A DNA stretch of 20,074 nucleotides, from IMG/VR virus record IMGVR_UViG_2663763227_000012. One strand, written 5' to 3'. A program made the translations under genes and the position numbers. This DNA comes from a virus (Duplodnaviria > Heunggongvirae > Uroviricota > Caudoviricetes). Every line of letters starts with the position of its first letter. Position 1 is the first letter of the stretch. Of this stretch, positions 6,758-14,059 are shown one piece after another. Under the pieces are notes generated by a model. The model searched no databases and was not told the DNA's origin. It saw only the letters and a program-made list of their open reading frames with translations.

Positions 6758-7262
6758 ACAGGCTCGTGAGGCTCTGGATGCCTGGATATGTCGACCAGGA
6801 ATGACACAGGAGCAGGCGACGATATTAATCACTGAAGCATTCTGGGCTTTGAAAGAGCGCCCGAACATCGATGTTCAGCGTGTCACATATGAAGGTGGCG
6901 CGATTGATCAGCGAGCGCTTGGCGTTAATCGAGTGAAGATATTTGAACGCTGGAAGGCTATCGACACCAGGGATAAGCGTGAAAAGTTCACGGCGCTAGT
7001 GCCTGCAATTATGGAGGCTATCCGGATTAATGATTTCAGGTTGTATCGTGAAATTACTGACGGAAAAAGCATCACGTGCATGATCGCCGGGTTAAACAAA
7101 GAATATGGCGATGTGGTGGAGTCCGGACTGCTTTTTGCTGATCCTGCCGTAGTGGATCGTGAAACTGACGAACTTATAGAAAAAGCAATTGCTTTCAAAC
7201 TTGCGTATCGACAGCAATACCAACAAAAAGCTGGATGGAATTATGAGCCTTCTTTTTGCTGA
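6741..7262 (+). CDS. YdaT-like early protein (CII-position regulator family)
   Basis: 173-aa ORF overlapping the dicC 3' end. The central segment (ERWKAIDTRDKREKFTALVPAIMEAI) resembles the conserved core of Rac YdaT as recalled. Confidence 0.6.
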   Translation: MKITPEQAREALDAWICRPGMTQEQATILITEAFWALKERPNIDVQRVTYEGGAIDQRALGVNRVKIFERWKAIDTRDKREKFTALVPAIMEAIRINDFRLYREITDGKSITCMIAGLNKEYGDVVESGLLFADPAVVDRETDELIEKAIAFKLAYRQQYQQKAGWNYEPSFC

Positions 7263-9024: not shown

Positions 9025-10137
9025 TGGAATGAAACGCAAATACCGGTAAGCCAGATTCTGGCACTGACAGACAGAAAACCTGTTATCTGTCAACGAACAG
9101 GGAAAAAACGATAAAACCCACTGGATTATTTTTATGAAAGAGGCATCCAGTGAGTAGATTCGTAAGGCTACAGATACGTATATCTGAATAATTAAATTCA
9201 GTTCTGTAAATAAAATTTAATCCTTAACCGGATGGATTTCTGCACCCTCAGAACATCAGGAGGCCGCCCGAAAGGGCGGTAGTGAAATGCGAAAGTTCAA
9301 AATTATTATTGAAACGGGAATAGCTGGTGGAGATTTTGAGGATGTATTCGAAGTGGACGATGACGCAACACCTGAGGAAATTCATGACGGAGCATAAGAA
9401 ATTTTCTTTAACTACTGCAATTACTCATACCACGAAATAAAAGACGATGAGGAAGAACAAAGTGGCTGATTTTTGTTCAGCTAAATATAACATCAGTTTT
9501 GAAGAGCGGGATGAACTATTAATGGACTATGGTGAGTTACGCGGTGGAAGTGCTGCTGATGTCGAATCCTAGCGTGATGACTATGAAGCGGGAAAAACTC
9601 CGGTCGAAGCATATTGTGATGAGTGGGGCGATGAATGAGCGAGATTAATTATCAGGAAGGGCATGAAACGGCGGGGCAAGCAAAACCAGTGGCATGGCGA
9701 TATCGCTACGTGAAAAAAGGCGTTACGGACTTTCAGGGGAAGTAGTGGTCTGGTGACTGGAAATATGTACCGAAAAAAGAGGATTGTAACGACAGGCCGA
9801 ACTATCAAATTCAGGCCTTATTCACTGCCTCACCAGTCCCAGTTACATCAGAAGAACTGGTTAAAGCTGTGCACTTTTATGAACAACTAAAACGCGAAAA
9901 TCCACCAACATCCGGCAACTAGATTAATGGATTAACTATGTCGGTTAAACGACCAGCCAACTGAAAAAGCGGAAACCTGATTACAGGTTGCCAGATAAGG
10001 CAATGAGCTACCTGGCGCGGAACGGACTGATAAGTATGGGGAATGTTTTACGATGAACCTTTAGACTAAAGAGTTTGTAACGCTATGTAAGTGATTTTTT
10101 CTGGTTTAGATATTTATATGTCCGGCCAAATTGAGGT
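9025..10137. other. AT-rich decayed accessory segment with several gene-like frames each broken by an in-frame stop
   Basis: 9288-9470 (MRKFKIIIETGIAGGDFEDVFEVDDDATPEEIHDGA-TAA-EIFFNYCNYSYHEIKDDEEEQSG), 9490-9637 (in-frame TAG at 9569-9571) and 9635-9921 (MSEINYQEGHETAGQAKPVAWRYRYVKKGVTDFQGK-TAG-WSGDWKYVPKKEDC...). No ORF over 60 aa on the plus strand. Confidence 0.4.
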
Positions 10138-10356: not shown

Positions 10357-10690
10357 ATACAGCGAACTCCATTGGTTTAGTTGGATATTTACTGTGCTGG
10401 ACAAAAACGGTTTGCGGGGAAATCTTAGTTAAGTAGAATGACTGCGGGTGCTTGAGGCTATCTGCCTCGGGCATGGACACCAACGGCAGATAGAGAAAAG
10501 CCCCAGTTAACATTACGCGTCCTGCAAGACGCTTAACATTAATCTGAGGCCAATTTCATGCTAGACACATGTAGGTTAGCCTCTTACGTGCCGAAAGGCA
10601 CGGAGAAGCAGGCTATTGTTAACACCAAGCTGTAATGTCCCCTTTGAACCATTCTAAAATGTCCCCAGACAATTCTCTGGGGGATTTTTC

Positions 10691-12004
10691 ATGATCAAAG
10701 AGACTGTTACGATGAGTCATAAGGAACTCCACCGACTTCAGATTATTCAGGAACAAGCTGCGGCACGCATTGGCATTTCTATTCGGCAGGTTAAACGTCT
10801 GGTGCAACGGTATAGAAATGAAGGGCCTTCTGGTCTGGTTTCCCACCGACGTGGAAAGCGTCCTAATAATTCCTTTTCTACTGAATTCAGAGCAACAGTA
10901 ATTTCACTCCTCAAAGGCCGTTACGCTGATTTTGGACCTACGTTTGCGTGCGAAAAATTGCGCGAGATACACGGTTTATCTTTATCCGTTGAAACTCTCA
11001 GAAAGTGGATGATAGAAGAGGGGTTATGGCGTGAACGCCGTCGTAAAATTGCCCGTATATATCAACGCCGCATGCGACGACCATCTTACGGTGAACTGAT
11101 CCAGATTGATGGCTCACCTCATGACTGGTTTGAAAATCGAGGCCCCAGATGTACACTGATCGTTTTCATTGATGATGCCACCAGTGCGTTGATGGCGTTG
11201 CGTTTTGTGCCTGCTGAAACAACCCGGGCTTACATGGAAACCCTCCGGGGTTACCTTAATGATCATGGCGTACCGCTCGCTCTCTACTCTGATAGACACA
11301 GTATATTCAGGGTAAATAACCCAGAGCGGGAAGGTGAGCTGACCCAGTTCACTCGTGCGATAAAGACACTGGGCATCGAGCCAATCCATGCCAACAGCCC
11401 GCAGGCAAAAGGGCGGGTAGAGCGCGCCAATCAGACACTACAGGACAGGCTGGTCAAAGAAATGCGGCTTCAGAATATCAGTGATATTGAAACAGCAAAT
11501 GCATGGTTGCCGACCTTTATTGAAGCCTATAACAACCGGTTCGCTACGTCGCCTCGTACTACTGATAATGCTCATCTTGATGTGCACCATTCTGAAGAGG
11601 AACTGGGTTATATCTTCAGCCTACAGGCGAAGCGCGTTCTGTCTAAAAATCTCACTTTCCAGTACAAAAGCAGTGCGTTTCAGGTACGCAGTGAGGGCCG
11701 GGGATATCGACTTAGGCATTCGGTTGTTACTGTATGCGAGAACTTTGACGGTGAAATTAACGTTCTGTATGACGGGAAAGCGCTGGGCTGGGAAAAGTAT
11801 GTTGATGGCCCGGAGCCTATACCACTGGATGATGAAAAGAGTGTCCATGAACGAGTGGATAATGCCCGTATTGATTTACGCTCAAAATACTATGTTAAAC
11901 CTAAAGCTGACCATCCCTGGCTTACGCGCCGAACGCAAAGTCATCAGCAAGTTAAGCCCCCGAAGTTACCTAAAAAGAAGCCTGATCCCGATAAAAAAGA
12001 TTGA
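10691..12004 (+). CDS. DDE transposase/integrase-core (rve) protein with N-terminal HTH, IS481/ISNCY-like
   Basis: 437-aa ORF: N-terminal HTH (IGISIRQVKRLVQRY), then an rve-type catalytic core (IQIDGSPHDW...TLIVFIDDATS...GRVERANQTLQD) and a basic C-terminal tail. Element boundaries not resolved. Confidence 0.8.
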   Translation: MIKETVTMSHKELHRLQIIQEQAAARIGISIRQVKRLVQRYRNEGPSGLVSHRRGKRPNNSFSTEFRATVISLLKGRYADFGPTFACEKLREIHGLSLSVETLRKWMIEEGLWRERRRKIARIYQRRMRRPSYGELIQIDGSPHDWFENRGPRCTLIVFIDDATSALMALRFVPAETTRAYMETLRGYLNDHGVPLALYSDRHSIFRVNNPEREGELTQFTRAIKTLGIEPIHANSPQAKGRVERANQTLQDRLVKEMRLQNISDIETANAWLPTFIEAYNNRFATSPRTTDNAHLDVHHSEEELGYIFSLQAKRVLSKNLTFQYKSSAFQVRSEGRGYRLRHSVVTVCENFDGEINVLYDGKALGWEKYVDGPEPIPLDDEKSVHERVDNARIDLRSKYYVKPKADHPWLTRRTQSHQQVKPPKLPKKKPDPDKKD

Positions 12005-12399
12005 AACCAAGATCGATTCGGTTGAGTGCATATCCATTCATAGGGTAGATTCTTAAGTCGCGTTTCTGGTGTTCATTTTCGGGTGGTTTGTTACTTGTTT
12101 TACCGGGGATATGCCAGAAACGCGCTGAGTCAGTCTGGGCGGTGCGCGTAATGAGGCGTTATGGTAAATAGCCTATGCTAATGTCCGCTAAGAGCAAGAA
12201 GCGGAAGTTGGCAGTTTTGTGGACTGTCCCCACAAAAGTGACTACAGAAATAGTTGCAATTCATAATTGATCATGGGTTGTCAGTTAAACTCGTGGCGAT
12301 TTAAATAGACTAATTGGGAGTGCGTCCATTACTTATATCTTGTAATGTTAACTATCAGAAATGATACAAAGATAATATGTCTTTAAAGAAAAGGCTGAT

Positions 12400-12427
12400 G
12401 GCGAAAAGTGGCCCGATGAGGGCCACA
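12400..12427 (-). terminator. Intrinsic terminator downstream of flxA
   Basis: Hairpin GTGGCCC-gatgag-GGCCAC (12408-12426) followed on the minus strand by a T-run. Confidence 0.5.
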
Positions 12428-12440
12428 ATACGGCTGTCAC

Positions 12441-12773
12441 TTAGACGTAAATATCAATGGTGCCAGCGGTATTTGTATCGTCTTTTTTCTCTTCTTTTTT
12501 ATCAGGCTGAACTGTCGCGTCTTCATTCTTTTTCTCTGCCTGCTGCCTTAACAACTGCTCCAGTTGAGCCCAGAGGCTTTCAATTTGCTTTTGTACCAAT
12601 GCAGCCATTTCTTTTTTCTGCTGTGTCGTCATCCCCTCTTCCGATGAGATTTTCCCAAGCTTTTCAGTCAGCACCTGAATTTGTCTTGTGATTTTGGCTA
12701 TTTCTGATGTTCCTTCCGGGGCGGAGTTGTTTGAAATAACGGTTGAGGTATTTCCCTGAATTGTGACAGACAT
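12441..12773 (-). CDS. flxA: FlxA (sigma-28-dependent Qin prophage protein)
   Basis: 110-aa ORF (MSVTIQGNTSTVISNNSAPEGTSEIAKITRQIQVLTEKLGKISSEEGMTTQQKKEMAALVQKQIESLWAQLEQLL...) matching FlxA as recalled. Confidence 0.85.
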   Translation of the reverse strand: MSVTIQGNTSTVISNNSAPEGTSEIAKITRQIQVLTEKLGKISSEEGMTTQQKKEMAALVQKQIESLWAQLEQLLRQQAEKKNEDATVQPDKKEEKKDDTNTAGTIDIYV

Positions 12774-12796
12774 AGATTTCTCCTTTTAAAAAAACA

Positions 12797-12824
12797 CTAT
12801 CGGCATGCACAAAAAAATCTTTAA
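12797..12824 (-). promoter_or_regulatory. Sigma-28 (FliA) class-3 promoter for flxA
   Basis: Minus strand reads TTAAAG-N15-GCCGATA (-35 at 12819-12824, -10 at 12798-12804), close to the FliA consensus TAAA-N15-GCCGATAA, about 25 nt upstream of the flxA start. Confidence 0.6.
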
Positions 12825-12975
12825 TCGTATTTCTTGTGTCATTAATTGTTTGATGTTCAGATTGTTTTCCTCGCGGGCTGGCGCGCCTCAGAAAGTAAAG
12901 CTTGTTGACAGGGGTAAACGTTCGGCAATAATTTTCTGCCGCATGCGGGTGTTGCATAAAACGTGTTACGTTCCT

Positions 12976-13281
12976 TTATCGACAGGTCAGGTCACCGCTC
13001 ACCCGCCGACGAGAAAGCAACACTGACATGCTAAAGCAAAAAATAGATGAATAAGTTGAGTTGTGCATATGTAGCCTGACCGTCACAAAGTATATGGTGT
13101 CTGTACCAGTAAGATGATGGCCGGACTCTTTAAAAACGAGCTGACCTGCACAATACAGGATGGACTTAGCAATGGCTGCTCCTGGCACAAAGCGGACAGT
13201 GATCACCGTTCTTACGACTACTTTCTGACTTCCTTCGTGACTTGCCCTAAGCATGTTGTAGTGCGATACTTGTAATGACAT
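12976..13281 (-). CDS. ydfV: YdfV-like hypothetical protein
   Basis: 101-aa ORF between flxA and relB, same position and length as Qin ydfV. Unusual composition, so it may not be a real protein. Confidence 0.45.
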   Translation of the reverse strand: MSLQVSHYNMLRASHEGSQKVVVRTVITVRFVPGAAIAKSILYCAGQLVFKESGHHLTGTDTIYFVTVRLHMHNSTYSSIFCFSMSVLLSRRRVSGDLTCR

Positions 13282-13294
13282 TTGTAATTACAAG
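13269..13294 (+). promoter_or_regulatory. relO-like operator in the relBE promoter
   Basis: CTTGTAAT-gacat-TTGTAATTACAAG: inverted and direct TTGTAAT hexads immediately upstream of the relB start. Confidence 0.6.
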
Positions 13295-13305
13295 AGGTGT
13301 AAGAC

Positions 13306-13545
13306 ATGGGTAGCATTAACCTGCGTATTGACGATGAACTTAAAGCGCGTTCTTACGCCGCGCTTGAAAAAATGGGTGTAACTCCTTCTGAAGCGCTTCG
13401 TCTCATGCTCGAGTATATCGCTGACAATGAACGCTTGCCGTTCAAACAGACACTCCTGAGTGATGAAGATGCTGAACTTGTGGAGGTAGTGAAAGAACGG
13501 CTTCGTAATCCTAAGCCAGTACGTGTGACGCTGGATGAACTCTGA
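13306..13545 (+). CDS. relB: RelB antitoxin
   Basis: 79-aa ORF (MGSINLRIDDELKARSYAALEKMGVTPSEALRLMLEYIADNERLPFKQTLLSDEDAELVEVVKERLRNPKPVRVTLDEL), near-identical to E. coli RelB as recalled. Confidence 0.9.
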   Translation: MGSINLRIDDELKARSYAALEKMGVTPSEALRLMLEYIADNERLPFKQTLLSDEDAELVEVVKERLRNPKPVRVTLDEL

Positions 13546-13832
13546 TGGCGTATTTTCTGGATTTTGACGAGCGGGCACTAAAGGAATGGCGAAAGCTGGG
13601 CTCGACGGTACGTGAACAGTTGAAAAAGAAGCTGGTTGAAGTACTTGAGTCACCCCGGATTGAAGCAAACAAGCTCCGTGGTATGCCTGATTGTTACAAG
13701 ATTAAGCTCCGGTCTTCAGGCTATCGCCTTGTATACCAGGTTATAGACGAGAAAGTTGTCGTTTTCGTGATTTCTGTTGGGAAAAGAGAACGCTCGGAAG
13801 TATATAGCGAGGCGGTCAAACGCATTCTCTGA
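13545..13832 (+). CDS. relE: RelE toxin (ribosome-dependent mRNA interferase)
   Basis: 95-aa ORF (MAYFLDFDERALKEWRKLGSTVREQLKKKLVEVLESPRIEANKLRGMPDCYKIKLRSSGYRLVYQVIDEKVVVFVISVGKRERSEVYSEAVKRIL). Start overlaps the relB stop (ATGA). Confidence 0.9.
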   Translation: MAYFLDFDERALKEWRKLGSTVREQLKKKLVEVLESPRIEANKLRGMPDCYKIKLRSSGYRLVYQVIDEKVVVFVISVGKRERSEVYSEAVKRIL

Positions 13833-13903
13833 ACCAAAGCATGACATCTCTGTTTCGCACCGAAGGTGACACTTCTGCTTTGCGTTGACAGGAGAAGCAG
13901 GCT

Positions 13904-14059
13904 ATGAAGCAGCAAAAGGCGATGTTAATCGCCCTGATCGTCATCTGTTTAACCGTCATAGTGACGGCACTGGTAACGAGGAAAGACCTCTGCGAGGTAC
14001 GAATCCGAACCGGCCAGACGGAGGTCGCTGTCTTCACAGCTTACGAACCTGAGGAGTAA
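13904..14059 (+). CDS. hokD: Hok-family membrane toxin HokD (RelF)
   Basis: Hand-translated 51-aa ORF (MKQQKAMLIALIVICLTVIVTALVTRKDLCEVRIRTGQTEVAVFTAYEPEE), below the track cutoff. GGAGAAG RBS; third gene after relBE. Confidence 0.85.
   Translation: MKQQKAMLIALIVICLTVIVTALVTRKDLCEVRIRTGQTEVAVFTAYEPEE

Follow-up and report, generated by a model that had tools for sequence, protein, structure and literature searches.

Members of the IS1202 family of insertion sequences (ISs), once classed as the IS1202 group of ISNCY, encode a DDE transposase with an N-terminal helix-turn-helix (HTH), are bounded by imperfect inverted repeats (IRs) of about 22–29 bp that start with TGT, and duplicate 3–6, 15–18 or 24–29 bp of their target. 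They are compact (1.3–2.5 kb, with the transposase as the main gene), some carry passenger open reading frames (ORFs; "transporter IS"), and the ISAjo2/ISAba32 subgroup is site and orientation specific, inserting 5 bp from plasmid pdif/dif sites (Harmer & Hall 2023, PMC10132070; Siguier et al. 2022, bioRxiv 10.1101/2022.12.17.520857). ISEsa1 of Cronobacter sakazakii, listed at 1609 bp with terminal inverted repeats matching at 15/22 positions and no duplication detected, forms its own subgroup with ISCARN112 (PMC10132070). Here we describe an ISEsa1-like element in a 20,074-nucleotide stretch of viral DNA (IMG/VR record IMGVR_UViG_2663763227_000012; herein the window). Positions 10617 through 13890 are very probably a single IS1202-family transposon carrying the toxin-antitoxin (TA) genes relBE, inserted at the start of the toxin gene hokD in a Qin-like prophage, and the transposases of this element and its relatives most likely select hok start sites.

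The window element resembles the IS1202 family in its DDE transposase with an N-terminal HTH and in its imperfect, ~26-bp IRs starting with TGT; the IR length lies within the family range, and the 15-bp duplication falls in the 15–18-bp class. It departs from a compact IS in being 3274 bp long with four passenger genes, and is a cargo-bearing transposon of the "transporter IS" kind, not a plain IS. Two further differences from the described family are the target, which is the translation-initiation region of hok here and Xer sites there, and the combination of several passenger genes with a TA module in versions of 2.6–12.8 kb.

The relBE-hokD (relBEF) locus of the Qin prophage of Escherichia coli K-12 is the same locus. 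The accessible part of the literature on it, a 2019 review (PMC6379469, citing Ramisetty & Santhosh 2016), already gives plasmids as the source of relBE and hokD as its place of integration; in that part, no vehicle, ends or target preference are given for the integration. The left end is gone in K-12, so the vehicle is not visible there, whereas in the window the displaced hok leader can be seen together with the transposase, the duplication and both IRs.

Results

Boundaries of the element

The ends were defined by comparison with an empty site, L003 (NZ_CP145662; L-numbers are labels of compared loci). L003 aligns to window positions 9970 through 10616 and 13890 through 15922, with 16 nt of L003 used twice, and because it aligns on both sides with this overlap, the window differs from the empty site by an insert and a short duplication. 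The inserted unit (10617 through 13890, 3274 bp) carries the transposase gene (tnp), flxA, ydfV, relB and relE. Its left and right inverted repeats (IRL, 10617 through 10642; IRR, 13865 through 13890) are 26-bp imperfect repeats with 19/26 matches, and they are flanked by a 15-bp target duplication, GGAGAAGCAGGCTAT, at 10602 through 10616 and 13891 through 13905, present as a single copy in L003. The duplicated 15 bp run from the hokD Shine-Dalgarno (SD) sequence through the AT of the ATG. With a slash marking the element end, the left junction reads ...aaaggcac GGAGAAGCAGGCTAT / TGTTAACACCAAGCTGTAATGTCCCC..., the right junction ...GGTGACACTTCTGCTTTGCGTTGACA / GGAGAAGCAGGCTAT Gaagcag... and the empty site ...aaaggcaa GGAGAAGCAGGCTAT Gaagcag....

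The original prediction, made from the window alone, had proposed a transposase-like gene with a long structured leader at 10380–12260, unusual or unresolved element boundaries, and no clean terminal IRs. The last point is true inside that interval: between 10300 and 12400 no terminal IR pair was found, only short chance pairs and the stems of the hok leader. The IRR lies beyond it, and the boundaries are those of a 3274-bp unit that ends past relE. The comparison with empty sites that had been proposed as a check was thus what fixed the ends and the target-site duplication (TSD).

In the window element and in all relatives examined, down to Hahella elements with 62% identity, TGTC(C/A)CC-type boxes lie ~20 and ~45 positions into either end; the box motif of the IRs is AATGTCCCC. 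The TGTCCCC copies at 10636 through 10642 and 10660 through 10666 are the conserved left-end boxes of the window element. The features of the locus are as follows.

10380–10616, plus strand: 5' half of the split hok/sok locus, outside the mobile element (RF01794 match; identity to L003)
10602–10616, no strand: left copy of the target duplication, GGAGAAGCAGGCTAT, identical to 13891–13905 and found once in L003
10617–10642, plus strand: IRL, TGTTAACACCAAGCTGTAATGTCCCC; the same 26-mer borders plasmid, genome and metagenome copies
10652–10666, plus strand: second subterminal AAAATGTCCCC box, a putative transposase-binding site; also the 5' arm of the hairpin at 10662–10683
10691–12004, plus strand: IS1202-family (ISNCY, ISEsa1-like) DDE transposase gene, 437 aa (NF033594, 456 bits)
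11855–12004, plus strand: stretch corresponding to K-12 ydfW (b1567), the last 49 transposase codons (mapped from the annotation of L001 and L002)
12005–12205, plus strand: non-coding end of the conserved left module, whose homology to other elements extends to 12195–12220
12206–13177, minus strand: variable cargo, here flxA and ydfV; other copies have different cargo at this place
12441–12773, minus strand: flxA (Pfam FlxA, 53.8 bits; annotation of the identical L001)
12976–13281, minus strand: ydfV; the ORF extends ~100 bp past the homology boundary into the right module
13178–13890, plus strand: conserved right module with relB, relE and the IRR, 93–99% identical in eight variants
13306–13545, plus strand: relB (Pfam RelB, 110 bits)
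13545–13832, plus strand: relE (Pfam ParE_toxin, 51 bits)
13865–13890, minus strand: IRR, GGTGACACTTCTGCTTTGCGTTGACA, directly abutting the right duplication copy
13891–13905, no strand: right copy of the target duplication, identical to 10602–10616
13904–14059, plus strand: hokD toxin ORF (Pfam HOK_GEF, 82.9 bits), directly downstream of relE and parted from its own leader

The adjacent antitoxin (RelB) and toxin (RelE) genes are those of a RelBE type II TA system, and L001, which is 100% identical, shares protein accessions with the K-12-type L002. An Rfam scan of the whole window returned the small RNA DicF (4943 through 4994, minus strand; 76.7 bits) and a cspA-type thermoregulator 5' untranslated region (17462 through 17854, plus strand; 158.8 bits). 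As both are ordinary features of Qin, the window is a Qin-like lambdoid prophage of E. coli.

The interrupted hok leader

Positions 10380 through 10616 are the front half of a hok/sok locus cut by the transposon, not a leader of the transposase gene. Rfam family RF01794 (sok/CssrC) matches at full length at 10446 through 10617 on the plus, hok-sense strand (model positions 1 through 157; 104.1 bits against a gathering score of 59; E = 4.7e-23), as expected of the conserved, structured hok mRNA leader, and the last three model positions correspond to the hok AUG in the empty site. The three hairpins that had been pointed out upstream of the transposase gene are all present, at 10458 through 10493, 10517 through 10532 and 10588 through 10601 (earlier coordinates were up to one base off), and such an occurrence is far beyond chance. 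The first and third are RF01794 stems and the second lies in an insertion relative to the model; they belong to the hok locus, not to the transposase gene. The covariance-model scan suggested for this region thus did find a structured RNA, but that of hok and not one of the transposase.

A megablast of window positions 10380 through 12300 against 5426 complete E. coli genomes divides the query at the same place. The part from 10380 to 10616 matches thousands of hokD/Hok-Gef loci; the remainder matches transposase genes annotated as "ISNCY" or "IS1202-like element ISEsa1 family". In L003 the leader region (2091 through 2736, 98% identity) is continuous with the hokD ATG, followed by rem and ydfU, and it is this direct run of the element-free leader into hokD in other genomes that argues against a regulated, structured leader of the transposase gene. 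In the window the hokD ORF stands 3274 bp from the leader, so that the contiguous ORF of a hok locus is lacking and the locus is split. A simple, crude sigma-70 scan of 10300 through 10760 returned no promoters, which has no bearing either way on the hok/sok promoters. Orphan "sok" Rfam hits beside ISNCY transposases are explained by hok loci split in this way.

The transposase gene

The 437-aa ORF (10691 through 12004, plus strand) was confirmed. It has HTH domains at its N terminus (Pfam HTH_32/29/28) and scores 456.4 bits against NCBIfam NF033594 (transpos_ISNCY_2, "ISNCY family transposase"; cut-off 250); the match to rve_3 is weak (24.4 bits, under the 26.5 cut-off). PGAP names copies with 99% identity "IS1202-like element ISEsa1 family transposase". 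An alignment of relatives shows conservation of the DDE-region motifs QIDGSPHDWF, LYSDRHSIF and KGRVERANQTLQDR. The earlier assignment to an HTH plus DDE integrase core of the IS481/ISNCY kind therefore keeps its rve/DDE part as ISNCY; membership of IS481 was rejected, NF033577 reaching 125.7 bits, below its cut-off of 224.

The window transposase lacks nine residues (ESINRHITQ) that are kept in all relatives, including ones only ~45% identical, and the transposases of the relatives are all 446 aa or equivalent in the alignment. The underlying change is a 27-bp in-frame deletion between TCAGGA repeats at window 10740 through 10760 (tnp codons ~20–21); the rest of the protein is intact, DDE-region motifs included. 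In Shigella, the copy at this site (L018) has a length of 3301 bp and carries the nine residues, as do all plasmid copies, and the deletion is therefore secondary. Because it falls in the N-terminal DNA-binding region, the window copy is probably inactive and, after the loss, probably immobile.

One hairpin inside the element, at 10662 through 10683, is the sole candidate there for a regulated transposase leader. It is terminator-like and includes the purine run ahead of the tnp ATG, and could mask the tnp ribosome-binding site in read-through transcripts from the hok promoter; in an alignment of ten relatives the consensus fold reaches only −1.0 kcal/mol and 2/7 pairs covary, which is weak covariation support.

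Target site preference

Relatives were collected by a transposase scan of one genome per species, which gave 79 loci, and metagenome contigs were scanned by exact match to the 26-nt IRL, which gave 38 distinct 60-nt left flanks. Hok leaders account for ~28 of the 38. Among the enterobacterial copies, at least 10 distinct genome hok loci, including a hokE-like locus, have the same IRL with the duplication beginning right after ggcaa (ggcaa/GGAG), and the RF01794 match ends exactly at the first IRL base in L004, L012, L015, L026 and L040. With one exception, L022, it is always the IRL that adjoins the leader. From the distribution of insertions rather than from experiment, we conclude that these elements apparently have a strong, orientation-specific preference for the hok start.

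In 28 distinct complete elements the duplication is mostly 16 bp (n = 14) or 15 bp (n = 10), with two cases each of 14 and 17 bp. The three bases 5' of the left duplication copy are nearly always CAA (gCAA, tCAA, aCAA), at hok and non-hok sites alike and even in Hahella, where cargo-less 1449-bp copies occupy otherwise unrelated sites. CAA, the sole feature common to hok and non-hok sites, may be the minimal target signal; no palindromic or other motif beyond it is evident by eye at the complete elements. Tandem junctions of the form IRR-15 bp-IRL occur in L007 (2687 through 2753), L023 (about 8510 through 8563) and L157, and in L023 the second element is a diverged one. These junctions show that a second element can land in the target regenerated by the first, and the elements seem to lack target immunity.

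Since hok loci are related repeats, they could recombine with one another, and the association might have arisen from one or a few chance insertions spread by homologous recombination; alternatively, an insertion that separates hok from its promoter might be advantageous, and selection for disarming a toxin gene could have produced the same picture. The existence of non-hok insertions would fit either route. We hold both to be improbable. The duplications are not the same from site to site, and each agrees with the local sequence to its left and right, as TGGAGGGGCTATGAT does in pnd; the flanking hok loci are highly diverged, far more so than the ~99%-identical elements between them. In some metagenome contigs with otherwise identical flanks the insertion point is shifted by 1–2 nt, and such shifts therefore reflect repeated independent hits; selection, for its part, is unable to yield nucleotide-level precision or a constant orientation. 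Target preference of the element itself thus remains our reading of the hok association.

Two of the flanking regions hold further structured RNAs. In Kluyvera (L019, 6837 through 6950, minus strand) a match to Rfam isrO (RF01397, 58.8 bits) abuts and overlaps the IRL of a 4.6-kb copy, and the flank is only loosely hok-like. Downstream of the pnd insertion in L004 (6144 through 6650), a second RF01794 hit and two AgrB (RF02891) hits lie beside dqlB, a cluster of several type I TA loci.

Movement of the whole unit and its modular organization

At least 16 plasmids, from Salmonella, Enterobacter and E. coli, and the phage record PhiR42_1 contain the complete 3274 bp at 98.7–99.2% identity. On the IncI plasmid pSA20064858.1 (L004, NZ_CP030003) the element lies between the pnd leader and a PndA-type Hok ORF, with the duplication TGGAGGGGCTATGAT; on an Enterobacter IncF plasmid (L005) it lies ahead of a Hok ORF, with the duplication AGGAGAAGAAGGCCA. 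An empty pnd site of 400 nt, rebuilt from the L004 flanks and one duplication copy, has full-length matches of 100% identity in ColIb-P9 and many IncI plasmids, and matches 1799 plasmid records at ≥80% coverage. Judged by these junctions, the pnd and IncF hok copies are clean, independent insertions.

Across relatives, which range in size from 2.6 to 12.8 kb, the left module (IRL and tnp, to ~12205) and the right module (13178 through 13890) are conserved and the middle varies. The right module is ~99% identical in six of the eight variants compared (L009, L011, L012, L015, L019, L024, L026 and L079; 93–99% in all). Other versions carry a cytochrome b561 and a cation-efflux protein, with or without an IS110-family element, or a LysR regulator and DMT-like proteins; the largest (L176, NZ_CP022534, pMS7884B; 12,843 bp from IRL to IRR) has ncrABCY, chrBA and a HupE/UreJ gene ahead of relBE. 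We do not count pMS7884B as a clean 12.8-kb example, hok flanking it at the right end only. Relatives in Scandinavium (L039, 10275 through 11020; L025, 13952 through 14697; ~80% transposase identity) have TacA (Pfam, 90.9 bits) and a GNAT fragment beside the IRR and no relBE, at sites that are not hok loci. Since a TacA/GNAT pair takes the place of relBE in Scandinavium, what recurs at the right end of the vehicle in the variants compared is a type II TA module.

More distant relatives, with 62% transposase identity, are present as at least 10 cargo-less 1449-bp copies on the chromosome of Hahella sp. SMD15-11 (L027–L038, L052), with 15–17-bp duplications at unrelated sites. One Hahella tandem pair (L028) shares a duplication.

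The variable middle raises the question of whether the window unit arose in two events, as a 1.6-kb ISEsa1-type IS (10617 to ~12215) beside an independently acquired flxA-ydfV-relBE block. Left-module homology does stop at ~12205, where some plasmids show an IRR-like tip, ...GGTTGACG, at which a shorter left arm of ISEsa1 length ends; the window tail holds a degenerate counterpart of it (~12199 through 12215, compared with L006 3600 through 3629), and the cargo between the modules varies. We nevertheless find a two-event origin very unlikely. The copies of the 15-bp duplication stand at the limits of the full 3274 bp and not around the left arm, and at the pnd and IncF hok loci, to which the unit has moved in full, its outer ends are bordered by new duplications. 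In L006 and L008 no duplication was found at the inner, ISEsa1-length tip, and the relBE-IRR module travels with the transposase in eight variants of differing cargo.

The view of a solitary IS481/ISNCY-like IS within ~10380–12260, with a long regulated leader and atypical ends of direct TGTCCCC motifs, could draw on the adjacency of transposase ORF and hairpins on one strand, on TGTCCCC at both sides and on the published ISEsa1 (1609 bp, poor IRs, no duplication; PMC10132070), but is barely credible, given that the hairpin region is a hok leader contiguous with hokD, without the transposase, in thousands of genomes, that the IRL starts at 10617, downstream of the hairpins, and that the leader is not conserved with the transposase at non-hok sites. 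The three TGTCCCC copies on which it partly relied exist (two of them one base off the earlier coordinates), with ~0.2 expected by chance for a 7-mer in 2 kb on both strands. We reject an end or binding-site role for the third, at 12225 through 12231 on the right flank, and treat it as a chance occurrence: its orientation is direct, other versions do not have it, and its place is in the variable cargo immediately beyond the left module.

The remnant in K-12 and distribution in E. coli

K-12-type genomes lack window positions 7021 through 11819 (4.8 kb), which hold prophage genes, the orphan hok leader, the IRL and three quarters of tnp, and retain 11820 through 13890 of the element; the megablast query matches them just at 11820 through 12300, under ydfW. 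The junction lies between ydfX and window position 11820, with a 2-bp overlap (TA), and the right arm of the window is 99.9% identical to K-12. K-12 ydfW (b1567), which we take to be the gene formerly named intK, is the last 49 codons of the 437-aa transposase ORF, and the suggestion that the window gene has a pseudogene fragment of K-12 Qin as its counterpart was correct. PGAP calls L001 4312 through 5355 (window 10691 through 11734) a truncated pseudogene, "missing C-terminus", with the last 49 codons as ydfW; for an intact 437-aa ORF, this call is an artefact of annotation carried over from K-12.

Of the 5426 E. coli genomes, 4030 have the leader joined to hokD without interruption at some locus, 1163 have the relE-IRR-hokD junction, and 785 keep the left part or left junction. 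The insertion at hokD gave rise to the relB-relE-hokD order of E. coli K-12.

Discussion

The unit is laid out as IRL, transposase, variable cargo (flxA, ydfV), relBE module and IRR. The transposon entered the hok/sok locus exactly at the ribosome-binding site and start codon of hokD, duplicating 15 bp and leaving the promoter and leader half (10380 through 10616) stranded upstream as an orphan. Through the duplicated 15 bp hokD keeps its SD and ATG, and it has ended up directly behind relE. Parted from its promoter and the rest of its 5' leader, and hence from Sok control, it may now be read from the relBE promoter, as literature cited in the accessible part of PMC5120126 gives co-transcription of hokD with relBE. 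K-12 later lost window 7021 through 11819, keeping the right arm together with ydfW. Most likely the site is selected by the transposase or by a cofactor, because relatives insert at the same nucleotide (±1–2) of many hok-family loci, almost always in the same orientation; recognition may involve CAA together with the adjacent conserved hairpin and a purine-rich stretch. Homing on hok would bring the element onto plasmids and prophages, in parallel to the pdif/dif targeting of ISAjo2/ISAba32, and relBE would stabilise the carrier and so aid persistence of the element. Beyond the window, we consider it likely that elements of the ISEsa1 branch are cargo transposons of 2.6–12.8 kb with a type II TA system at the right end, 15–16-bp duplications and one-orientation homing on the hok ribosome-binding site and start, and that one such event made the relB-relE-hokD order of K-12.

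Several observations weigh against this interpretation. In the window version, the IRR has degenerate boxes (TGTCACC, TGTCATG). The orientation is reversed in L022, and insertions outside hok, with duplications, are seen in L011, L019, L025, L039 and L079 and in ~8 metagenome flanks; the hok specificity is a strong preference, not an absolute one. The element in pMS7884B has a hok ORF (GGAGAAGAAGGCCATG...) as its right flank but an unrelated left flank, and thus lacks a matching duplication; the matching hok-leader flank is found on the left in L008. In some plasmids the left module ends in an IRR-like tip, so a shorter form of 1.6 kb may move as well, or may have done so in the past. The published ISEsa1, at 1609 bp and without a duplication (PMC10132070), conflicts with our limits unless it is the left arm only. 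Site selection by the transposase is suggested by the distribution of insertions only, and the co-transcription of hokD and relBE is taken from the literature (the accessible part of PMC5120126) and not from analysis of the window.

If the interpretation is right, a transposon bearing a type II TA system captures a type I toxin gene and removes its antisense control. The integration of relBE at hokD, previously described without a mechanism, would gain a vehicle and a mechanism at a much-studied TA locus of K-12, and ydfW (b1567) would be explained as a transposase remnant. A second kind of site-specific targeting is suggested within the IS1202 family, hok besides Xer/dif, both of which mark plasmids and mobile DNA. 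The ~40-bp natural "landing pad" could serve targeted insertion, and metal-resistance cargo (ncr/chr, cation efflux) travels between plasmids of Enterobacteriaceae on the same vehicle.

Comparison with known systems

The closest named element is ISEsa1, with which the comparison was made by its published table. The left ~1.6 kb of the window element is about as long as ISEsa1, and transposases ~99% identical to that of the window are labelled "ISEsa1 family" by PGAP; the window unit differs in reaching a distal IRR past relE and in belonging to elements that make a 15–16-bp duplication. This suggests that the published limits of ISEsa1 describe the left arm only and that the real mobile units reach the distal IRR, which would correct its description in length, ends and "no TSD". 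In the literature searched, to which ISfinder, TnCentral and Ramisetty & Santhosh 2016 did not belong, neither the transposon nor hok targeting is described. As an element, it is a variant within the known IS1202 family; its hok-start targeting, built-in TA module and role in the origin of K-12 relBE-hokD appear to be undescribed.

Two other systems offer partial parallels. Toxin-antitoxin pairs built into Tn3-family transposons have reportedly been described by Lima-Mendez and colleagues (mBio, in 2020). As in the window element, a type II TA module is conserved beside the transposition functions and accompanied by variable passengers; the Tn3-family transposase is unrelated, and the window element has no resolvase and holds its TA genes at the end opposite the transposase. 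Disruption of hok loci by mobile elements, as seen in the window, is also said to have been noted in K-12 by Pedersen and Gerdes in 1999, with IS150 at hokA and IS186 at hokC and hokE. Those insertions, which involve other IS families, reportedly lie close to the hok frames and not at them, whereas the insertions described here come from one family and fall at one nucleotide position.

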